DNA of 64,000 nucleotides from Octopus vulgaris (GCA_951406725.2 OX597828.1:28582001-28646000), one strand, 5' to 3'. Positions 1 through 60,631 are shown, counted from the first letter of the stretch. A program made the numbers and translations. The notes: a model not told the origin generated them from the sequence alone.

Positions 1-1
1 T

Positions 2-1666
2 GCCAGGGATAGCGCACGTTTGCGCTTCCCCGACACGTTTGTCCACGACCCGCGCCAACCTTTTTGCTAGCACCTTGGCCAGAATCTTTAACTCTGTGTT
101 CAACAGAGTTATGGGCCTGAAGTTCCCTATCTCGTCCCCCTTGTTCGGGTCCTTCCTGATCAACGTCACCGCCCCCCGGCTCGCAGACTTGGGAATTCTC
201 CCATTCTGCTGCCAGTTGGCGTAGACGCTAGCCAGCAGGTGCCCGAACAAGTCTGGCATACTTTTATAAAATTCATAGGGCAGACCATCGAGACCCGGCG
301 ACTTCTCCCCGCGGCACTTGCCCAACACCTCGATTACTTCCTCGGCTGTGATTGGCCCTTCACAGCACTCAGCCTCTTGTGTCGAGAGGCGCGGGCCACC
401 AGACAGGAAGTCCCTAAGGGCTTCAACATGATCCAGCGTCCCGCACCTCCCGAACAACTCGGCGAAGTGCTTGTGAAGTGCCTCACACATCTCATCCCGC
501 TTCTTGATCGTGCATCCGTTTTCATCAACAAGAGACCCAATTGTGGCATCGTTGCCACGCTGTGTTTCTATCGTACGGGCCCATCCGGCAACATTAATTC
601 CCTCACGGCCCAATGCTCGTACTTTAGCCCGAACTCTACATCCCTTATGTTTGGTTTTGAGGTGACGGTCTAATGCCGTTCTCGCCGCTAAAATGTGAGA
701 TGCAGAGCCCAACCTCAACGCCTCCTCTAAGTTCTTAACTAGTTGCCCTTCTATTCTAGCCCTAACTAGTCTTAGTTGTTTACTAAATCTAATGGACTCG
801 AATCGAATGGCTCTTTTGAGGGCGAACCACCACCGGTTATTAACCACGGCTCCGGTTAACGCCCTCTGCACTAACTCCTTAATCCGGCTACGGTATGCCT
901 CGCGAGTCAAAATAGACTTGTTCAGCTTCCAGTAGCCGGTTCCTATCTTAAGTGTGCTATCTATGTCCAGTCTACACGTGACCATTCTATGGTCAGTATA
1001 GGGCACCTGGACGAGCTGTGGACAACTAAAACTAGACTTATCTCTAGTTCTTATCACTATCCTGTCTAGATAAGACTTGAACCTTCCGTCGCCACTCATC
1101 CAGGTCCACTCTGGGACGTTCGGATGGTCAAGTCTGTAACGATCTGCCAGCTGAAACCGCTTAAGCAGATCCACGAGACGTGAGTTCACTTTCCTATAGA
1201 TCGAGCCAACGCTATCGATGTGTACGTCAACGATAGCATTAAAGTCCCCTAATATCACTAAAGTCTTCGACGTCACGAGAAAGCCCTCTAGGCGCCGATA
1301 AAAATCAGTTTGGAAACCTCTAGCACAAGGTGCATAGAGTCCGGTCAACCTGAAGGCCTTACTGCTGTATGTCACATCAAGGACGACCAGCCCATCTTCT
1401 GGGTCTACATAGACTGTACTTGTCTGCAGAGCCAAGTCTTTACGGATCAGTACCACTACACCCCCTCGCCCTCCGGTCTGGCCAGGAGACATGATTTTCT
1501 CGTAGCCATTCAGGAGAGGCGAGAAGGTTTGTAGGCTGTCCAGCTTGGTCTCTGTAGCAACCATCACATGTATATCATGTGATCTGAGGTCGTCGAGGAA
1601 ACAAGCCTGCTTCCACTTCGAACTCAGACCACACACATTTAAACAACCAAGGTTAAGAGAAGCCAT
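2..1666 (-). CDS. LINE ORF2 (APE endonuclease plus N-terminal RT), partial, apparently open to the window edge; absent from the ORF track, consistent with no in-window stop
   Basis: Manual translation from ATG 1666: MASLNLGCLNVCGL..VATETKL..GLYAP..ILGDFN..SYLDR..YTDH..GTGYWKLNKSIL..KSPGLDGLPYEFY..NFRPITLLNTELKILAKVLAKRL..EAQTCAIPG. These are APE catalytic motifs and L1/Tx1-type RT motifs in one frame. Confidence 0.93.
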   Translation of the reverse strand, partial: MASLNLGCLNVCGLSSKWKQACFLDDLRSHDIHVMVATETKLDSLQTFSPLLNGYEKIMSPGQTGGRGGVVVLIRKDLALQTSTVYVDPEDGLVVLDVTYSSKAFRLTGLYAPCARGFQTDFYRRLEGFLVTSKTLVILGDFNAIVDVHIDSVGSIYRKVNSRLVDLLKRFQLADRYRLDHPNVPEWTWMSGDGRFKSYLDRIVIRTRDKSSFSCPQLVQVPYTDHRMVTCRLDIDSTLKIGTGYWKLNKSILTREAYRSRIKELVQRALTGAVVNNRWWFALKRAIRFESIRFSKQLRLVRARIEGQLVKNLEEALRLGSASHILAARTALDRHLKTKHKGCRVRAKVRALGREGINVAGWARTIETQRGNDATIGSLVDENGCTIKKRDEMCEALHKHFAELFGRCGTLDHVEALRDFLSGGPRLSTQEAECCEGPITAEEVIEVLGKCRGEKSPGLDGLPYEFYKSMPDLFGHLLASVYANWQQNGRIPKSASRGAVTLIRKDPNKGDEIGNFRPITLLNTELKILAKVLAKRLARVVDKRVGEAQTCAIPG

Positions 1667-1683
1667 TACAAAAAGTAAAAGTT

Positions 1684-3120
1684 CTACTTACATTTCATTG
1701 GAAAGGTTGGGGCCGACCTCACCACACATTTGTGGACCCCTTCTTTCTCCTCCTTCTTCGGATAGTCCGGCAAGTTCGCCATATGCCGGATGGCGTTTGG
1801 TTGTCTGTCTTTTAATTGTTTGAACGTTGTTTCCGCAATCCACGCACATCTCTCGTTTCGATCTTTGTATTTGTTGTACAGTCTTGCTGACTGATGCGGA
1901 ACCACAATATCGTTTATGTATTTGTTTTGTGTGTCGAATTCAATTAATATGAGTTCATTTTTTTTGTCTTCTTTTTCTGGGCCAGCTGAGCGGGATTTTT
2001 TTTTTCGTGTCTGTGGTGTGTCTTTGTTTTTATTATTTTTTGTAGGGGATGTGGACGGGGATGATGCACGAATTCTTTTACGAACTGTTGTAAATCCCCC
2101 CTCTGATACCTCCATGGTATCGTCTGGGGTAGCAATAGTTTGTTCAGTAGGCGCCGCAGTTTTTAAGGGGGTGGGAGGTTTTAATAGTGTAGGGGTATGT
2201 GAGTGTGAGGGCTGGGTTTTTTCTTCAGTTTGTTTTGGGGTTGGCACCGTAACAGCAGGAGTGGGATTTTTTGTTTTTGTAGGGGTAGGTGAGTTTGCAA
2301 GGGTAGGGATTTTTTTATTATCTGAGGGGCCTGGTGTCTGCGGTTTCTTTTGCTTGTCTGGACAGTCTACACGAATGTGGCCCTTTTTGCCGCAGGCGTA
2401 ACAGGTGGGTTTTCGGCCTTCGACCTGTACCCCGAGGGCCACGTTCTCGCCCACGAGCACCCTCTCAAGAAGGAGCTGCAGGTCCTCCGGTGTTCCTTGA
2501 ATTATTATATTAATGTCTCGCCCAAGCCAATATAGAGGGGCAGAGCATGTTACTTGTAGTATTTTAATTTTGTCCGTCCTTTTATATAACAGGGCGGCCA
2601 CTACCTCTACCGGATCTGCTTCCGGCGGGGCTTCTGCAATCCTGACCCGGGACGTCCTGCGTCCCCTATAGCTTGGGAAAAGTACCACCTCCTTGGTTTT
2701 TAGGGGGTTCACAGAATGCCCGCGGGCCACCTCTTCCCCCGAGAAGCGGACATCCACAGTGCCATATGCCCGTCCCCTGGCGACGTACACAATGTCCTTC
2801 CAAATCGGGGACAGGCATTTCTCGATGGTGTTTTTTTCAAAGTGTTTGAACCTTCTGCTTTGTGGACAGAAGGTTTTAAACACTACGGTCCGCTTCTCGG
2901 TCTCCACGATACTGGCGGAGGGTGATATTTTAACATCACCACCCTCCTCTTTCATTCTTTTAAATAGCTCGACGAGCTGATTGACATTGATGTCAATGTT
3001 CTCGGTAGCCACTGCGGCTACCGCAGAAAATTTTTTACTACAGTTAACATTGCTCTCCTCAAGAGCACTATTTTCGTGAATAATCTCAACAGACGTTATT
3101 CTGTTGAAATTAGACAACAC
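1684..3120 (-). CDS. LINE ORF1 (gag-like nucleic-acid chaperone with CX2CX4HX4C knuckle and P/T/K-rich tail); start codon uncertain
   Basis: 478-aa ORF with CYACGKKGHIRVDC, directly upstream of ORF2; opens with GTG and the first ATG is about 56 codons in. Confidence 0.88.
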   Translation of the reverse strand: MLSNFNRITSVEIIHENSALEESNVNCSKKFSAVAAVATENIDINVNQLVELFKRMKEEGGDVKISPSASIVETEKRTVVFKTFCPQSRRFKHFEKNTIEKCLSPIWKDIVYVARGRAYGTVDVRFSGEEVARGHSVNPLKTKEVVLFPSYRGRRTSRVRIAEAPPEADPVEVVAALLYKRTDKIKILQVTCSAPLYWLGRDINIIIQGTPEDLQLLLERVLVGENVALGVQVEGRKPTCYACGKKGHIRVDCPDKQKKPQTPGPSDNKKIPTLANSPTPTKTKNPTPAVTVPTPKQTEEKTQPSHSHTPTLLKPPTPLKTAAPTEQTIATPDDTMEVSEGGFTTVRKRIRASSPSTSPTKNNKNKDTPQTRKKKSRSAGPEKEDKKNELILIEFDTQNKYINDIVVPHQSARLYNKYKDRNERCAWIAETTFKQLKDRQPNAIRHMANLPDYPKKEEKEGVHKCVVRSAPTFPMKCK

Positions 3121-3499
3121 AAAAATTACGAATATTGGTTTCCCACAAAACTGGGAAACCTATAGAAAGTTTTTCTTCCAAAGCAGTTCAATAAGTGGTA
3201 AAAAGCAGTTCAAAAAATTTCAATTCCCACCCTCATTCGGGGGGAGGGGCACGAAAATAGTCTGGCAAGACTATATATAGTCACGTAGATAAAAAAAGCC
3301 ACAATGGCTAACAGTTCAACAGTAACAAATTATCCAATTATTCCCCGGTAAAACCGGAGAACAAGACAGTTCAACAACGTTCAGTAGTAAAATTCAACAA
3401 TTAACAACACAGCAAAACTCTTACCGGGAAGAAAACGCGTCCAAACCGTAGTAAGGTAAGCAAAGTCACTCTTCAGTCAGTGAGGTTATCAAGCTACTT

Positions 3500-4970
3500 T
3501 ATTTCAATTATTTTGCCATAAAGGGGACACTACAAAACATGTGGAGACATATAACAATTAAGAATATGTAAAAATAAAATGATACTGTGAGTGACATGAA
3601 AATGAACGTGAGAAAATAAATTAAGTTTATGATAACATGCATGGTATCTGAAAATGAAATATGACGAGTGTGCTACTCACCCCACTCTGAGCAACACCAC
3701 TCGCTGCCTTTGAGTCTGAATTCTTCTCTAATCTCTGGTCTAGTCCTTCTTTTTCCACTCTCACTATCGCTTAAAGACAACATTCTTTCGCAACCTTTTT
3801 CACCGGGGGAGGGGTTTTCTAAATTCTGTGGTGTCTGCTCTTTTTTCTTTTTCTTTTTTTCTTGTGGGGAAAGGGAGTGGGTGGGTCTGGTGTCTGTATG
3901 GGGCGGGTGGGTCTGAGTGGTCTTGGGTGGGATGGAGTTGGACTGGGGTACCATTTCACACTCAGTGTTCTTTCTTTTCTTCCTCTTCTTACTTCTGCTC
4001 TCTGCTACTATCCATTCTTCCTCCTTTCGTCCGTCTTTGTCTTCGTCCTCTTTTTTCTTCTTTGTCTCCGCAACTGGTTCATCTATTTTTTCCTCTATCT
4101 TTTTCTTCTGTAGGGGACAGTGTGCTATAATGTGGCCTTTTTGGCCACATTTAAAGCACCGCGGGGTTCTGCCTTCTACCCATACTCTCAATACTATTTC
4201 TCCCATTGTCACCGTTTCCGCCAAATTTTCCAGCTCCTTCGCCTCCGCTTGTATGATCATTTCCAGTAATTTTCCTTTGTAGCTTCCTTCCTCTGTCTCT
4301 GTGGCTTGGAGGACAGTCACCTCCTCACTTCCAACGAGGACGGCTGCCGCAACCCAAGCCACTTTTATGTCAGGTGGAATTCCTTCTACCCTCACCTTAG
4401 AATTCTTTCTGCCAAGATAGGAGGGTAGAAGTACTAGTTCCTCAGTTTTTACAGTTGTACTTGCCAGCCTCTTTGCCTCCTCTTCTGTTTTAAACTGGAC
4501 AACCACCGTCCCATATCCGCTTCCTTTTGCTATATATGTTACTTCCTTCGAAAGCCCCTTGAGAGCTTTTTCTACTTTTTCCATCTTCATCTGCTCCACC
4601 CTCCTACTCTCCACTGAGTGCACCTTGTAGGTAATTGTCTTCTTTTCCATATTTGCCATAACCGTTTTCGGGGGTAATAACTTCACGTCACTTCCCACCT
4701 TCTGTGTCATCTTATACAGCTCCTTCAGTTCAGTTAGGTCTACTTCCTTTTTCTTTACCTCTGCCACGTCAGCAAAACTTTTTATTTTTTCCAAATGCTG
4801 GTCCATTCTGTTCACCGCCTTAACGAGCTCCTCCTCTGATGTGGACAGTTCGTACTCGCTAAGGTCCGAATACATTATTTTCCACTCGCCAACAAACCGC
4901 TGGCGAGCAGCTCAAAGGATTCTGTCCGCCTAGTCAAAACTCAACACAGTAAACAACTCGACGCATGCGC
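3500..4970 (-). mobile_element. ORF1-only non-autonomous retroelement (HAL1/half-L1-like), 1471 bp
   Basis: About 95-nt leader, single ORF1, AT-rich 3'UTR ending in AATAAA; flanked by GTTATCAAGCTACTT (3485-3499) and GTTAGCAAGCTACTT (4971-4985); no endonuclease or RT. Confidence 0.8.
3673..4875 (-). CDS. ORF1-like gag protein with CCHC zinc knuckle, homologous to 1684..3120
   Basis: 400-aa ATG-initiated ORF with CFKCGQKGHIIAHC. Aligns by eye with the neighbouring ORF1 (YIAKGSGYGTVVVQF/YVARGRAYGTVDVRF; LVLLPSYLGRKNSKVRV/VVLFPSYRGRRTSRVRI; VEGRTPRC/VEGRKPTC). Confidence 0.88.
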   Translation of the reverse strand: MYSDLSEYELSTSEEELVKAVNRMDQHLEKIKSFADVAEVKKKEVDLTELKELYKMTQKVGSDVKLLPPKTVMANMEKKTITYKVHSVESRRVEQMKMEKVEKALKGLSKEVTYIAKGSGYGTVVVQFKTEEEAKRLASTTVKTEELVLLPSYLGRKNSKVRVEGIPPDIKVAWVAAAVLVGSEEVTVLQATETEEGSYKGKLLEMIIQAEAKELENLAETVTMGEIVLRVWVEGRTPRCFKCGQKGHIIAHCPLQKKKIEEKIDEPVAETKKKKEDEDKDGRKEEEWIVAESRSKKRKKRKNTECEMVPQSNSIPPKTTQTHPPHTDTRPTHSLSPQEKKKKKKEQTPQNLENPSPGEKGCERMLSLSDSESGKRRTRPEIREEFRLKGSEWCCSEWGE

Positions 4971-4999
4971 GTTAGCAAGCTACTTACCACACAGCCACT

Positions 5000-5002
<3 letters not shown>
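4971..5002 (-). mobile_element. 5' fragment of tRNA-derived SINE family A, interrupted by the retroelement pair
   Basis: Minus strand AGGAGTGGCTGTGTGGTAAGTAGCTTGCTAAC is identical to the head of the intact copy at 24344; preceded by (TA)n as at 34573. Confidence 0.85.
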
Positions 5003-7140: not shown

Positions 7141-7443
7141 GGAGGCGCAATAGCCCAGTGGTTAGGGCAGCGAACTCGCGGTCGTAGGATCGCGGTTTCG
7201 ATTCCCAGACCGGGCGTTGTGAGTGTTTATTGAGCGAAAACATCTAAACCTCCACGAGGCTCCGGCAGAGGATGGTGGCGATCCCTGCTGTACTCTTTTG
7301 CCATAACTTTCTTTCACTCTTTCTTCTGTTGGCCTGCTCGCTTAGCCAAGCGGGGTGGCGACATTTAAAGGCTAAAACAATGCGAAGCGCATTGTGACCA
7401 GCGACGTGTAGCAACTTCTGATAGCCTGGTCGGACACGGTGAT
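7141..7443 (+). mobile_element. tRNA(Arg)-like-headed SINE (family C)
   Basis: A box TAGCCCAGTGG, B box GGTTTCGATTCCC, TCG in the anticodon-like position, about 300-bp body. Confidence 0.7.
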
Positions 7444-23296: not shown

Positions 23297-23633
23297 GGCG
23301 CATGGCTCAGTGGTTACAGCATCGAGCTTACAATCACGAGATAGTGAGTTCGATTCCCGGACTGGGCTGTTCTTGAGCAATACACTTTATTTCACGTTGC
23401 TCCAGTTCACTCAGCAGTAGAAATGAATTGTGACGACACTAGTGCCAAGCCGCATCGGCCCCTTTGCCTTTCCCTTGGATAACATTGGTGGTGTGGAGAG
23501 GGGAGGCTGGTATGCATGGGCAGCTGTTACTCTTCCATGTACAACTTTGCCCAGACTTGTGATTCAGAGGAGGGGGACTTTCTAGGTGCAATCCCATGGT
23601 CATTTATGATCGAAGTGGGGTCTTTAACCTTTA
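23297..23633 (+). mobile_element. tRNA-derived SINE (family D)
   Basis: A box TGGCTCAGTGG, B box GAGTTCGATTCCC; central GTTGCTCCAGTTCACTCAGCAG; related heads at about 58335 and 58770. Confidence 0.7.
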
Positions 23634-24343: not shown

Positions 24344-24720
24344 GGCGCAGGAGTGGCTGTGTGGTAAGTAGCTTGCTAACCAACCTCATGGTTTCGGGTT
24401 CAGTCCCACTGCGTGGCATCTTGGGCAAGTATCTTCTGCTATAGACCCGGGCCGACCAATGCCTTGTGAGTGGATTTGGTAGACGGAAACTGAAAGAAGC
24501 CTGTCGTATATATGTATATATATATGTGTGTGTGTCTGTGTTTGTCCCCCTAGCATTGCTTGACAACCGATGCTGGTGTGTTTACGTCCCGGTCACTTAG
24601 CGGTTCTGCAAAAGAGACCGATAAAATAAGTACTGGGCTTACAAAGAATAAGCTCGACTAAAGGCGGTGTTCCAGCATGGCCGCAGTCAAATGACTGAAA
24701 CAAGTAAAAGAGTAAGAGTA
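24344..24720 (+). mobile_element. SINE family A, full length
   Basis: GGCGCAGGAGTGGCTGTGTGGTAAGTAGCTTGCTAACCAACC..GGTTCAGTCCC head, internal TA/TG linker, TAAAAGAG tail. Confidence 0.92.
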
Positions 24721-34572: not shown

Positions 34573-34985
34573 GGCGCAGGAGTGGCTGTGTGATAAGTAG
34601 CTTGCTAACCAACCACATGGTTCCGGGTTCAGTCCCACTGCGTGGAATCTTGGGCAAGTGTCTTCTGCTATAGCCCCGGGCCGACCAATGCCTTGTGAGT
34701 GGATTTGGTAGACGGAAAGTGAAAGAAGCCTGTCGTATATGTATATATATATATATGTATGTGTGTTTGTTTGTGTGTCTGTGTTTGTCCCCCTAGCATT
34801 GCTGTGACAACCGATGCTGGTGTGTTTATGTTCTTGTTACTTAGCGGTTCGGCAAGAGAGACCAATAGAATAAGTACTGGGCTTACAAAAAAGAATAAGT
34901 CCCGGGGTCGAGTTGCTCGATTAAAGGCGGTGCTCCAGCATGGCCGCAGTCAAATGACTGAAACAAGTAAAAGAGTAAAAGAGTA
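34573..34985 (+). mobile_element. SINE family A, full length
   Basis: Matches 24344-24720. Confidence 0.92.
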
Positions 34986-57894: not shown

Positions 57895-58922
57895 TACGCT
57901 GCATTGATATTAATCTGTCATTTTACTGACTGCTGGATTTACTAACGTTGTAGATAAGACCAAAGAAACGCCCTCCAAGTAATAAACAACTCAGCCACCG
58001 AACCAGCCATCTCCCTGTATCTTATATTTTCTTTTGTGGTGGCTACAGTGATTCCTGTTCCTTTAAATTAGAACACAGTGTATAAGCCACACGAAATTGA
58101 GCAACGTCTACACCGAAACTGGCTCATCGCGGCCCCTGTCTTTATTGCTCCCATTATCACTGATTCAACAGCATCAACGCCTGATCCAAATGCATTCTTT
58201 GGCAGAGATCGATCTCTCACACTTCTGAAAACAAAACCACTCTTGGACGCAATCCGATGAATGGTTTGCAGGGAATCACACTGACGTCTGCTATGCAATT
58301 TGGAATTGTGGGAAAGTAAGGCAGTCTAATGGTGAAGGCGCGTGGCATAGTGGTTAGGCAGTTGGACTGACGATCATAATGTGGGTTTTGGTTCCCGAAC
58401 AAGGCAGTGCGTTGTGTTCTTGGGCAAAGTACTTCATGCTGATCCTATCAAGTTAGTTGAAAATGCAGTGTTCCCCCTATACTATCCATACCCACCAATT
58501 TGCAAACGAAAGATATCAATGATCTTCGAGAGTTGCAGTACACTGGATTGGAACAGATGAAAGGGAAGGCCGTGGACGTCTCTTAGACATAGCAAGGCAG
58601 TTGAATATAATCAAAAATTATCGAAAGAATTTTCTGAATGTCCCAATCGCAGCATTTCATGTACCTTAAAGTAATCCTTTTAAGCACGTTTGCCATGCGT
58701 ATAGTTTTGTACGGACCATACATGATACATAAACCAAACTGTGATATTTTTTTTTAATGTAAAGCGTGGGTGCATGGCCGAGTGGTTAAGGCGTTGCTCT
58801 CACGATCATGAGGTCGTGGTTTCAATTTCTGGGGCCTGTGGTGCGTTGTGTTCTTGAGCAAAACATTCCATCTTATTTTGCTCTCTGATCACTTCGACAC
58901 CTGACGCGTGGTATACCGTGCA

Positions 58923-60444: not shown

Positions 60445-60631
60445 CATGATGATGATGATACATATATACGACGGGCTTCTTTCAGTTTCCGTCTACCAAA
60501 TCCACTCACAAGGCTTTAGTCGGCCCGAGGCTATAGTACAAAACACTTACCCAAGGTGCCACGCAGTGGAACTGAACCCGGAACCATGTGGTTGGTAAGC
60601 AAGCTACTTACCACACAGCCACTCCTACGCC
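60208..60631 (-). mobile_element. SINE family A, full length
   Basis: Reverse complement of 24344-24720. Confidence 0.92.

Follow-up and report, generated by a model that had tools for sequence, protein, structure and literature searches.

The 64,000-nucleotide stretch of the Octopus vulgaris genome examined in this study (GCA_951406725.2 OX597828.1:28582001-28646000, one strand; hereafter the window) contains a Tx1-like long interspersed nuclear element (LINE) and a second element encoding only the first open reading frame (ORF1), both inserted at the same position in the head of a short interspersed nuclear element (SINE). Read along the minus strand, the order is SINE head, a 15-nt target sequence (the 15-mer), the ORF1-only element, the 15-mer, the LINE, the 15-mer and the SINE remainder, the last two lying left of the window. 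A preliminary description of the window had proposed this stack, as well as an uninterrupted 15-mer in the SINEs at 24344 and 34573 and a copy with one substitution in the SINE at 60631; all of these are present, as follows.

5002-4986, minus strand: SINE head, 5' portion (SINE nt 6-22, with an A-box-like motif); the first 5 nt are gone, replaced by a (TA)n tract
4985-4971, minus strand: first copy of the 15-nt target duplication (exact 15-mer)
4970-3500, minus strand: ORF1-only element of family A, 1,471 bp, ending in a shared 18-nt tail without poly(A)
4875-3673, minus strand: family A ORF1, open over 400 amino acids from ATG, with an RRM-like region and a zinc knuckle, both below the Pfam cut-off
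3499-3485, minus strand: second copy of the 15-mer, a 14/15 match with one substitution, at 3489
3484-1, minus strand: 5' portion of the LINE (3,484 of 5,449 bp), which continues to G000:C15:28580036 and is followed by a third 15-mer and the SINE remainder
3096-1684, minus strand: LINE ORF1, with a zinc knuckle (PF00098, E 1.8e-5); start codon ACG in the window copy
1666-1, minus strand: start of LINE ORF2, with an apurinic/apyrimidinic-type endonuclease (APE; PF03372, E 8e-13) and the beginning of the reverse transcriptase (RT); a stop and a frameshift lie beyond the window
24344..24422, plus strand: empty SINE head, target intact; 15-mer exact and uninterrupted at 24366
34573..34902, plus strand: empty SINE copy, which served as reference; 15-mer exact and uninterrupted at 34595
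60551..60631, minus strand: empty SINE head of the TTAC variant; 15-mer at 60595 with one substitution

Allowing up to two mismatches, the 15-mer has eight matches in the window compared to 0.14 expected, and none of 100 shuffles reached eight. The end of the LINE (L031:8036) lies in the neighbouring genome stretch, where the 15-mer and then the rest of the SINE adjoin it; the preliminary description had predicted that a SINE remainder would be found there. Its statement that the two insertions lie 1 nt apart does not hold, as in 30/30 copies the LINE begins with the C found at 3484, and both 3' ends abut the identical target base. The A at 3489 is private to the window copy. This copy of the LINE is defective, its ORF1 starting with ACG and its ORF2 carrying one stop and one frameshift; the ORF1 start is ATG in 26 of 37 other LINE copies, with the motif unmatched in the remaining 11. 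To the left of the SINE remainder (L031:1100-7600) lies a long tandem repeat in which short GC-rich units are interleaved with a larger repeated unit.

Site specificity and independence of the insertions

Throughout the genome, the LINE inserts site-specifically into the SINE. A search with the exact 31-nt LINE tail, using a query without target sequence, returned 105 tails, and AAAGTAG came next in 101 of them (101/105), which constitutes sequence-specific insertion into a multicopy repeat. Two of the other four have the target with a 1-nt change (L106, L107), one is off target (L361) and one was not seen. The 15-mer precedes all of the best 30 LINE 5' ends (including the window copy), with a SINE head in 25 and a partner tail plus 15-mer in five, while the best 30 LINE 3' ends lead into the SINE remainder (27), another element (2) or a non-SINE repeat (1) that begins with the same 9 nt as the target. 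The exact empty 29-nt site occurs in 61,686 copies in the genome, so that the chance per insertion is ~1e-5 (61,686 empty sites over 5.6e9 strand positions). Fourteen older LINE copies (79-85% DNA identity) were fetched, and all seven with the 3' end present occupy the same site. The family A tail joined to the SINE remainder was also found in contigs from three public sequencing runs, each listed with a different organism code (loose ends at 3490). One public run that may be RNA has contigs across the ORF1-only element, which does not count as evidence of expression. The preliminary description had named unrelated flanks at the target as the finding that would speak against it; instead, the target is common to the copies and only the outer flanks are unrelated.

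Of 37 complete copies, 30 had a SINE remainder that could be read; pairwise divergence among these is 6.7% in the remainder (120 nt) compared to 1.2% in the last 240 nt of the LINE, making the SINE halves 5.6 times more diverse than the LINE; 28 empty SINEs diverge by 11.5%. Both SINE variants are occupied by LINE insertions, and the 300 nt upstream of 25 SINE heads have no BLAST match in common. Because the SINEs diverge far more than the LINE, both variants are occupied and the upstream DNA is unshared, these are separate insertions into pre-existing SINEs, and the LINE family is young. One private 15-mer variant recurs at four junctions of a single array (L131). The possibility that the 15-mer is an invariant part inside one element, also considered in the preliminary description, was rejected because its sequence differs between loci.

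Insertion junctions

Every 3' junction seen lacks poly(A) and is fixed to the base. At the other end, 36 of 37 5' duplicates end in CTAAC, and where the 3' copy has something other than TAAC, the 5' copy has TAAC regardless (8/8, plus 7/7 in a further sample). The distal part of the 5' 'duplication' is element-derived rather than target-derived in 15/15 informative full-length copies, and an extra T is present at the seam, after position 9 or 10, in 14 of 37 5' duplicates. The element therefore supplies the final 5-6 nt of the 5' duplicate, and the apparent 15-nt duplication would be a composite that restores a usable site. Among 5'-truncated copies, in which no leader can be present, three (L073, L356 and L359) have the variant of the local target at either side, across 16 nt, and six (L066, L142, L158, L362, L363 and L366) have a duplication of 0-6 nt or a small target loss; of the other truncated copies, four are without a SINE head directly upstream and one is off target.

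The SINE target

Compared to tRNAs from the same genome, three SINE heads scored above 200, 199 and 200 of 200 shuffles, with a weak profile score, and the head can be described as tRNA-like, with A and B boxes. The cut position falls directly after the A-box-like motif. ARAGORN run on the window and Rfam run on one SINE head gave no match. No parent tRNA was found among 30 tRNA loci of the genome (Arg, Ala, Thr, Cys, Lys, Glu and Ser calls), and no LINE insertion in a real tRNA gene among the 3' flanks read. The SINE body presumably resembles the CORE superfamily. Other tRNA-like stretches in the window, at 7147-7207, 23299-23359 and 58772-58827 (E 7.5e-7, 3.7e-8 and 0.001 with a profile of the genome's own tRNAs), are probably heads of another SINE family. 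Previously described octopus SINEs include OR1, OR2 and OK, which are named in the accessible portions of PMC4758252 and PMC4824008.

ORF1-only partners and arrays

Family A, represented in the window, has 26 of its 30 best 5' matches at the target, the other four being without the first 20-85 nt, and its young tail is at the target in 12/12 cases (10 exact, two with variant bases). Its ORF1 is under purifying selection, with dN/dS of 0.12-0.55 in 29/29 copy comparisons, all below 1. Older family A copies lie in SINE heads with other bases in the 15-mer, which indicates that the leader has tracked the SINE. A second ORF1-only group, family B, is ~2 kb long and has an ORF1 28-30% identical to the others. 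Families A and B are both multi-copy, have target duplications at their borders and encode only ORF1. A short tail is common to all, as would be expected of deletion derivatives of the partner LINE, but partner ORF1s are only 28-36% identical to the LINE ORF1, which suggests old, separate lineages. Searching for a generalised tail plus target gave 1,085 junctions genome-wide compared to one for the control. In 20 such junctions, the first listed outside the exact LINE tail, the 15-mer came next in 20/20, followed by SINE in 18 and an element in two; the coding content was a family-B-like ORF1 in 12, ORF2 in two and neither within 2.6 kb in six. One of these six (L342, G000:C1:39260960-39263790) holds a 105-nt, SINE-sized derivative consisting of a partner 5' end and the shared tail, between head and remainder.

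Head-to-tail arrays, anticipated in the preliminary description, exist at several loci and reach eight units with one shared head and one remainder; mixed stacks also occur. In the array L328-L330 (G000:C1:223688500-223716500), a SINE head is followed by seven 2.0-kb family B units, a LINE and the remainder. The seven units are 98.7-99.9% alike and may stem from repeated insertion or from local tandem duplication. A second target site lies on the opposite strand ~6.5 kb beyond the head of this array. At G000:C9:2664549-2675460, three LINE tails are spaced at 5.4 kb, presumably three full-length copies head to tail.

LINE proteins, relatives and the U2 link

A natural open-frame ORF2 encodes 1,133 amino acids with a C-terminal CCHC motif, and its best match among solved structures is human L1 ORF2p. 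The zinc knuckle in ORF1 and the APE, RT and C-terminal CCHC in ORF2 are all present, an arrangement equally true of the L1 clade, and the APE motifs can be aligned with the L1 endonuclease. The LINE probably belongs to the Tx1 clade. Among named proteins, one of Argonauta hians is closest (64% across the RT region), in line with an octopod host, and unnamed proteins near 50% come next. Between the LINE and its sister families, the endonucleases show 59-66% identity, with differences in the loop that precedes the YLDR motif. This loop aligns with the loop exchanged in the L1 chimeras LTX and LR1.

Relatives were also identified at 80 metagenome loci, of which all 80 were compared to U2 by BLAST and 11 were run against Rfam. 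Six of the 80 lie within U2 small nuclear RNA genes, from U2 nt 36, one of them with both ends and a 16-nt duplication; no tRNA gene was found in the 49 loci scanned for them. The RT tree comprised 58 rows, selected from 187 usable ones together with 12 stretches from the octopus genome. In this tree the SINE-targeting elements form one clade (100/99), group with sisters from the same genome that include a U2-start family (100/97), and together with these form the sister group of the U2-inserted clade (97/91), to which RT identity is ~40%; a quick tree agrees.

The U2-start sister family (ORF2 64-66% identical) is interspersed with U2 units in a 60-kb array (G000:C3:20776000-20835999; L322-L327), as three full copies, two of them in tandem, and one 3' fragment. 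Its duplication of ~20 nt includes the first 14 nt of U2, a site distinct from the internal U2 site, and the U2 promoter would drive its RNA. A third sister family is represented by L272 (G000:C32:529200-535800) and L277, which have an identical 3' flank, while the flank of L274 differs. The 5' flank of L272 has CCAAT- and TATA-like motifs and ends in a 13-14 nt copy of the 3' flank; the L272/L277 flanks match U2-array spacers in parts. Aligned with one gap, the internal U2 16-mer and the SINE site agree at 12/16 positions, a score that 7 of 6,000 random positions in the window also attain; as a clue to ancestry, this likeness is suggestive only.

Proposed mechanism and alternative explanations

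It is likely that the Tx1-like LINE and its ORF1-only partners insert almost only at one SINE position by way of an APE nick, with the RT copying any RNA that ends in the shared tail. Recognition of the target by the LINE endonuclease itself is likely. The first nick, at GGT/AAG or GGTA/AG, would give the primer for target-primed reverse transcription, and the second cut would follow at most ~16 nt downstream. Full-length RNA would begin 5-6 nt inside the duplicated target, forming a 5' leader; because of this start, the cDNA end, at times with an untemplated base, would anneal to the target overhang and rebuild the site, so that further elements could stack. The ORF1-only elements would produce their own ORF1 and borrow ORF2, and the SINE-targeting lineage would have descended from U2-associated ancestors by a switch of target. 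We also lean, by a modest degree, towards a broader history in which one lineage of U2-associated Tx1-like octopod LINEs radiated by target switching within one genome (to the U2 start, a third promoter-like repeat and the SINE head). The SINE branch would then sustain a guild of ORF1-only families that are old, under selection and more numerous than the LINE, and that stack and re-match their RNA leader to the dominant SINE variant.

Several observations weigh against one or the other of these proposals. With respect to insertion, one full-length copy (L092) shows the reverse 5'/3' pattern, a SINE head lies directly 5' in only 5 of 10 truncated copies of one sample, duplications vary from a loss of target bases up to 16 nt, and both ORFs are open in none of 37 LINE copies. 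With respect to ancestry, the U2-inserted clade is the sister, not the parent, of the SINE-targeters' group, the RT tree rows include no named Tx1 or Keno protein, and some rows derive from broken copies and may run across frameshifts. In addition, of the 90 internal U2 sites in the octopus genome 30 were sampled and none was occupied, the sites of the nearest sister families have no close likeness to the U2 internal site, and the U2 16-mer score is equalled at one other of 628 SINE positions.

There are several potential alternatives to the proposed mechanism. Site choice could be mainly a matter of RNA-DNA pairing, in which transcripts that extend into the SINE remainder prime only at those loosely placed nicks of a moderately specific endonuclease that bare the complementary strand. 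An exact, poly(A)-free 3' junction would fit read-through RNA priming equally well, a further point against the mechanism proposed above; in addition, poly(A) is absent at every 3' junction seen, the AATAAA signal needs bases of the target to be complete, target-like RNA is already used at the 5' end, and in older copies the target bases drift with the SINE variants. However, the 3' copies bear the local SINE variant and not the element's, fixed targets differ between sister families whose endonuclease loops differ, and the available text of PMC4494074 attributes Tx1 target choice mainly to the endonuclease. We consider pairing unlikely as the main determinant, although endonuclease recognition and RNA pairing can operate together.

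A second alternative, which we regard as very improbable, is that insertion is really directed at a host RNA gene, either the tRNA gene from which the SINE derives or another one, with the SINE as by-catch. The tRNA-like SINE head and the U2 genes targeted by relatives would be in keeping with this. However, all long 3' flanks that were read consist of SINE body, another element or (twice) non-SINE off-target sequence, with none recognised as a tRNA gene, and the 5' leader tracks SINE variants from older to younger copies; the tRNA comparison that bears on this alternative covered only 30 loci of few types. Finally, that head, LINE and remainder form one composite mobile unit without targeting, as the same SINE pieces flanking almost every copy might suggest, was rejected as next to impossible given the greater diversity of the SINE halves, the 5'-truncated LINEs in whole SINE heads, the unrelated families at the same site, the arrays of up to eight units with a single head and remainder, and the off-target copies without SINE.

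With APE-directed insertion into the SINE as the preferred explanation, the elements make up a three-tier parasite system, in which the SINE is the landing pad, the LINE the source of enzyme and the ORF1-only elements the riders. Stacking accounts for long repeat arrays that annotation would split. If the proposed scheme is true, three different fixed targets among endonucleases that are 59-66% identical would offer a series in which to look for the determinants of APE specificity; with close sisters aimed at other sites, the way in which APE targets change becomes directly testable, a matter of relevance to RNA-based tools for site-specific gene insertion.

Comparison with known systems

Targets of site-specific LINEs known so far are rDNA, snRNA genes, microsatellites and DNA or LTR transposons. 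A description of a SINE-targeting Tx1 element was not found in the searchable literature, a scope outside which Repbase falls, and the octopus families may already be catalogued in Repbase. In the accessible part of PMC13282606, 13 recently active L1-Tx1 families are reported for an octopus genome and the word 'target' does not occur; that of PMC8967140 mentions L1-Tx1 only as abundant. Tx1 targets given in the available text of PMC4494074 are Tx1D, U2, microsatellites, Mariner, Harbinger and long terminal repeat (LTR) elements, and target-specific groups, including 'other TEs', are reviewed in PMC4640811 and PMC8869645.

The U2 site of the fetched APE elements is presumably the same as that of Keno. 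These elements (L164, L167, L170, L171, L173 and L175) form the sister clade of the SINE-targeters' group and end in A runs, whereas the SINE-targeting LINE is without poly(A) at its 3' junction. Keno is an APE-type element that inserts in U2, according to the accessible text of PMC4640811, and the SINE-targeting LINE is likewise an APE-type non-LTR element with a fixed site and a duplication of ~16 nt. In contrast to Keno, it inserts into a SINE head, of which at least 61,686 empty copies exist, and it has ORF1-only partners. Membership in Keno itself was rejected, since the LINE lies in a SINE, the sampled U2 internal sites are unoccupied and its RT is sister to the U2 clade and not nested within it.

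R2 and R1 elements of ribosomal DNA also produce RNA with upstream target bases, rebuild their site (with the 5' junction formed by homology) and occur in tandem copies. They differ from the octopus LINE in clade and target, and sequence comparison with them is limited to weak RT matches. HAL1 (half-L1) elements, defined in the available part of PMC5753468 as non-autonomous, encoding ORF1 only and having arisen repeatedly, resemble the octopus ORF1-only elements, which are non-autonomous and encode only ORF1. Unlike HAL1, the octopus elements are Tx1-like and not mammalian L1, are site-specific, have an ORF1 28-36% identical to that of the LINE and share a short tail with it.

Further close parallels are Tx1L in Tx1D and the crocodilian Tx1-Mar in Mariner-N4_AMi, likewise Tx1 elements on non-autonomous transposons; Tx1-Mar groups with Keno and is accompanied by SINEU, a non-autonomous partner (both from the accessible text of PMC4494074). 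The targets reported there are DNA transposons or LTR elements and not a SINE, whereas the octopus LINE targets a SINE and its partners are protein-coding ORF1-only elements. The threshold for specificity in the same text is >20% of flanks, compared to 96% at one base in the octopus LINE. A single-base target within a SINE would be a new target class for a known kind of element, the site-specific Tx1-like LINE, which operates like Keno and Tx1-Mar.

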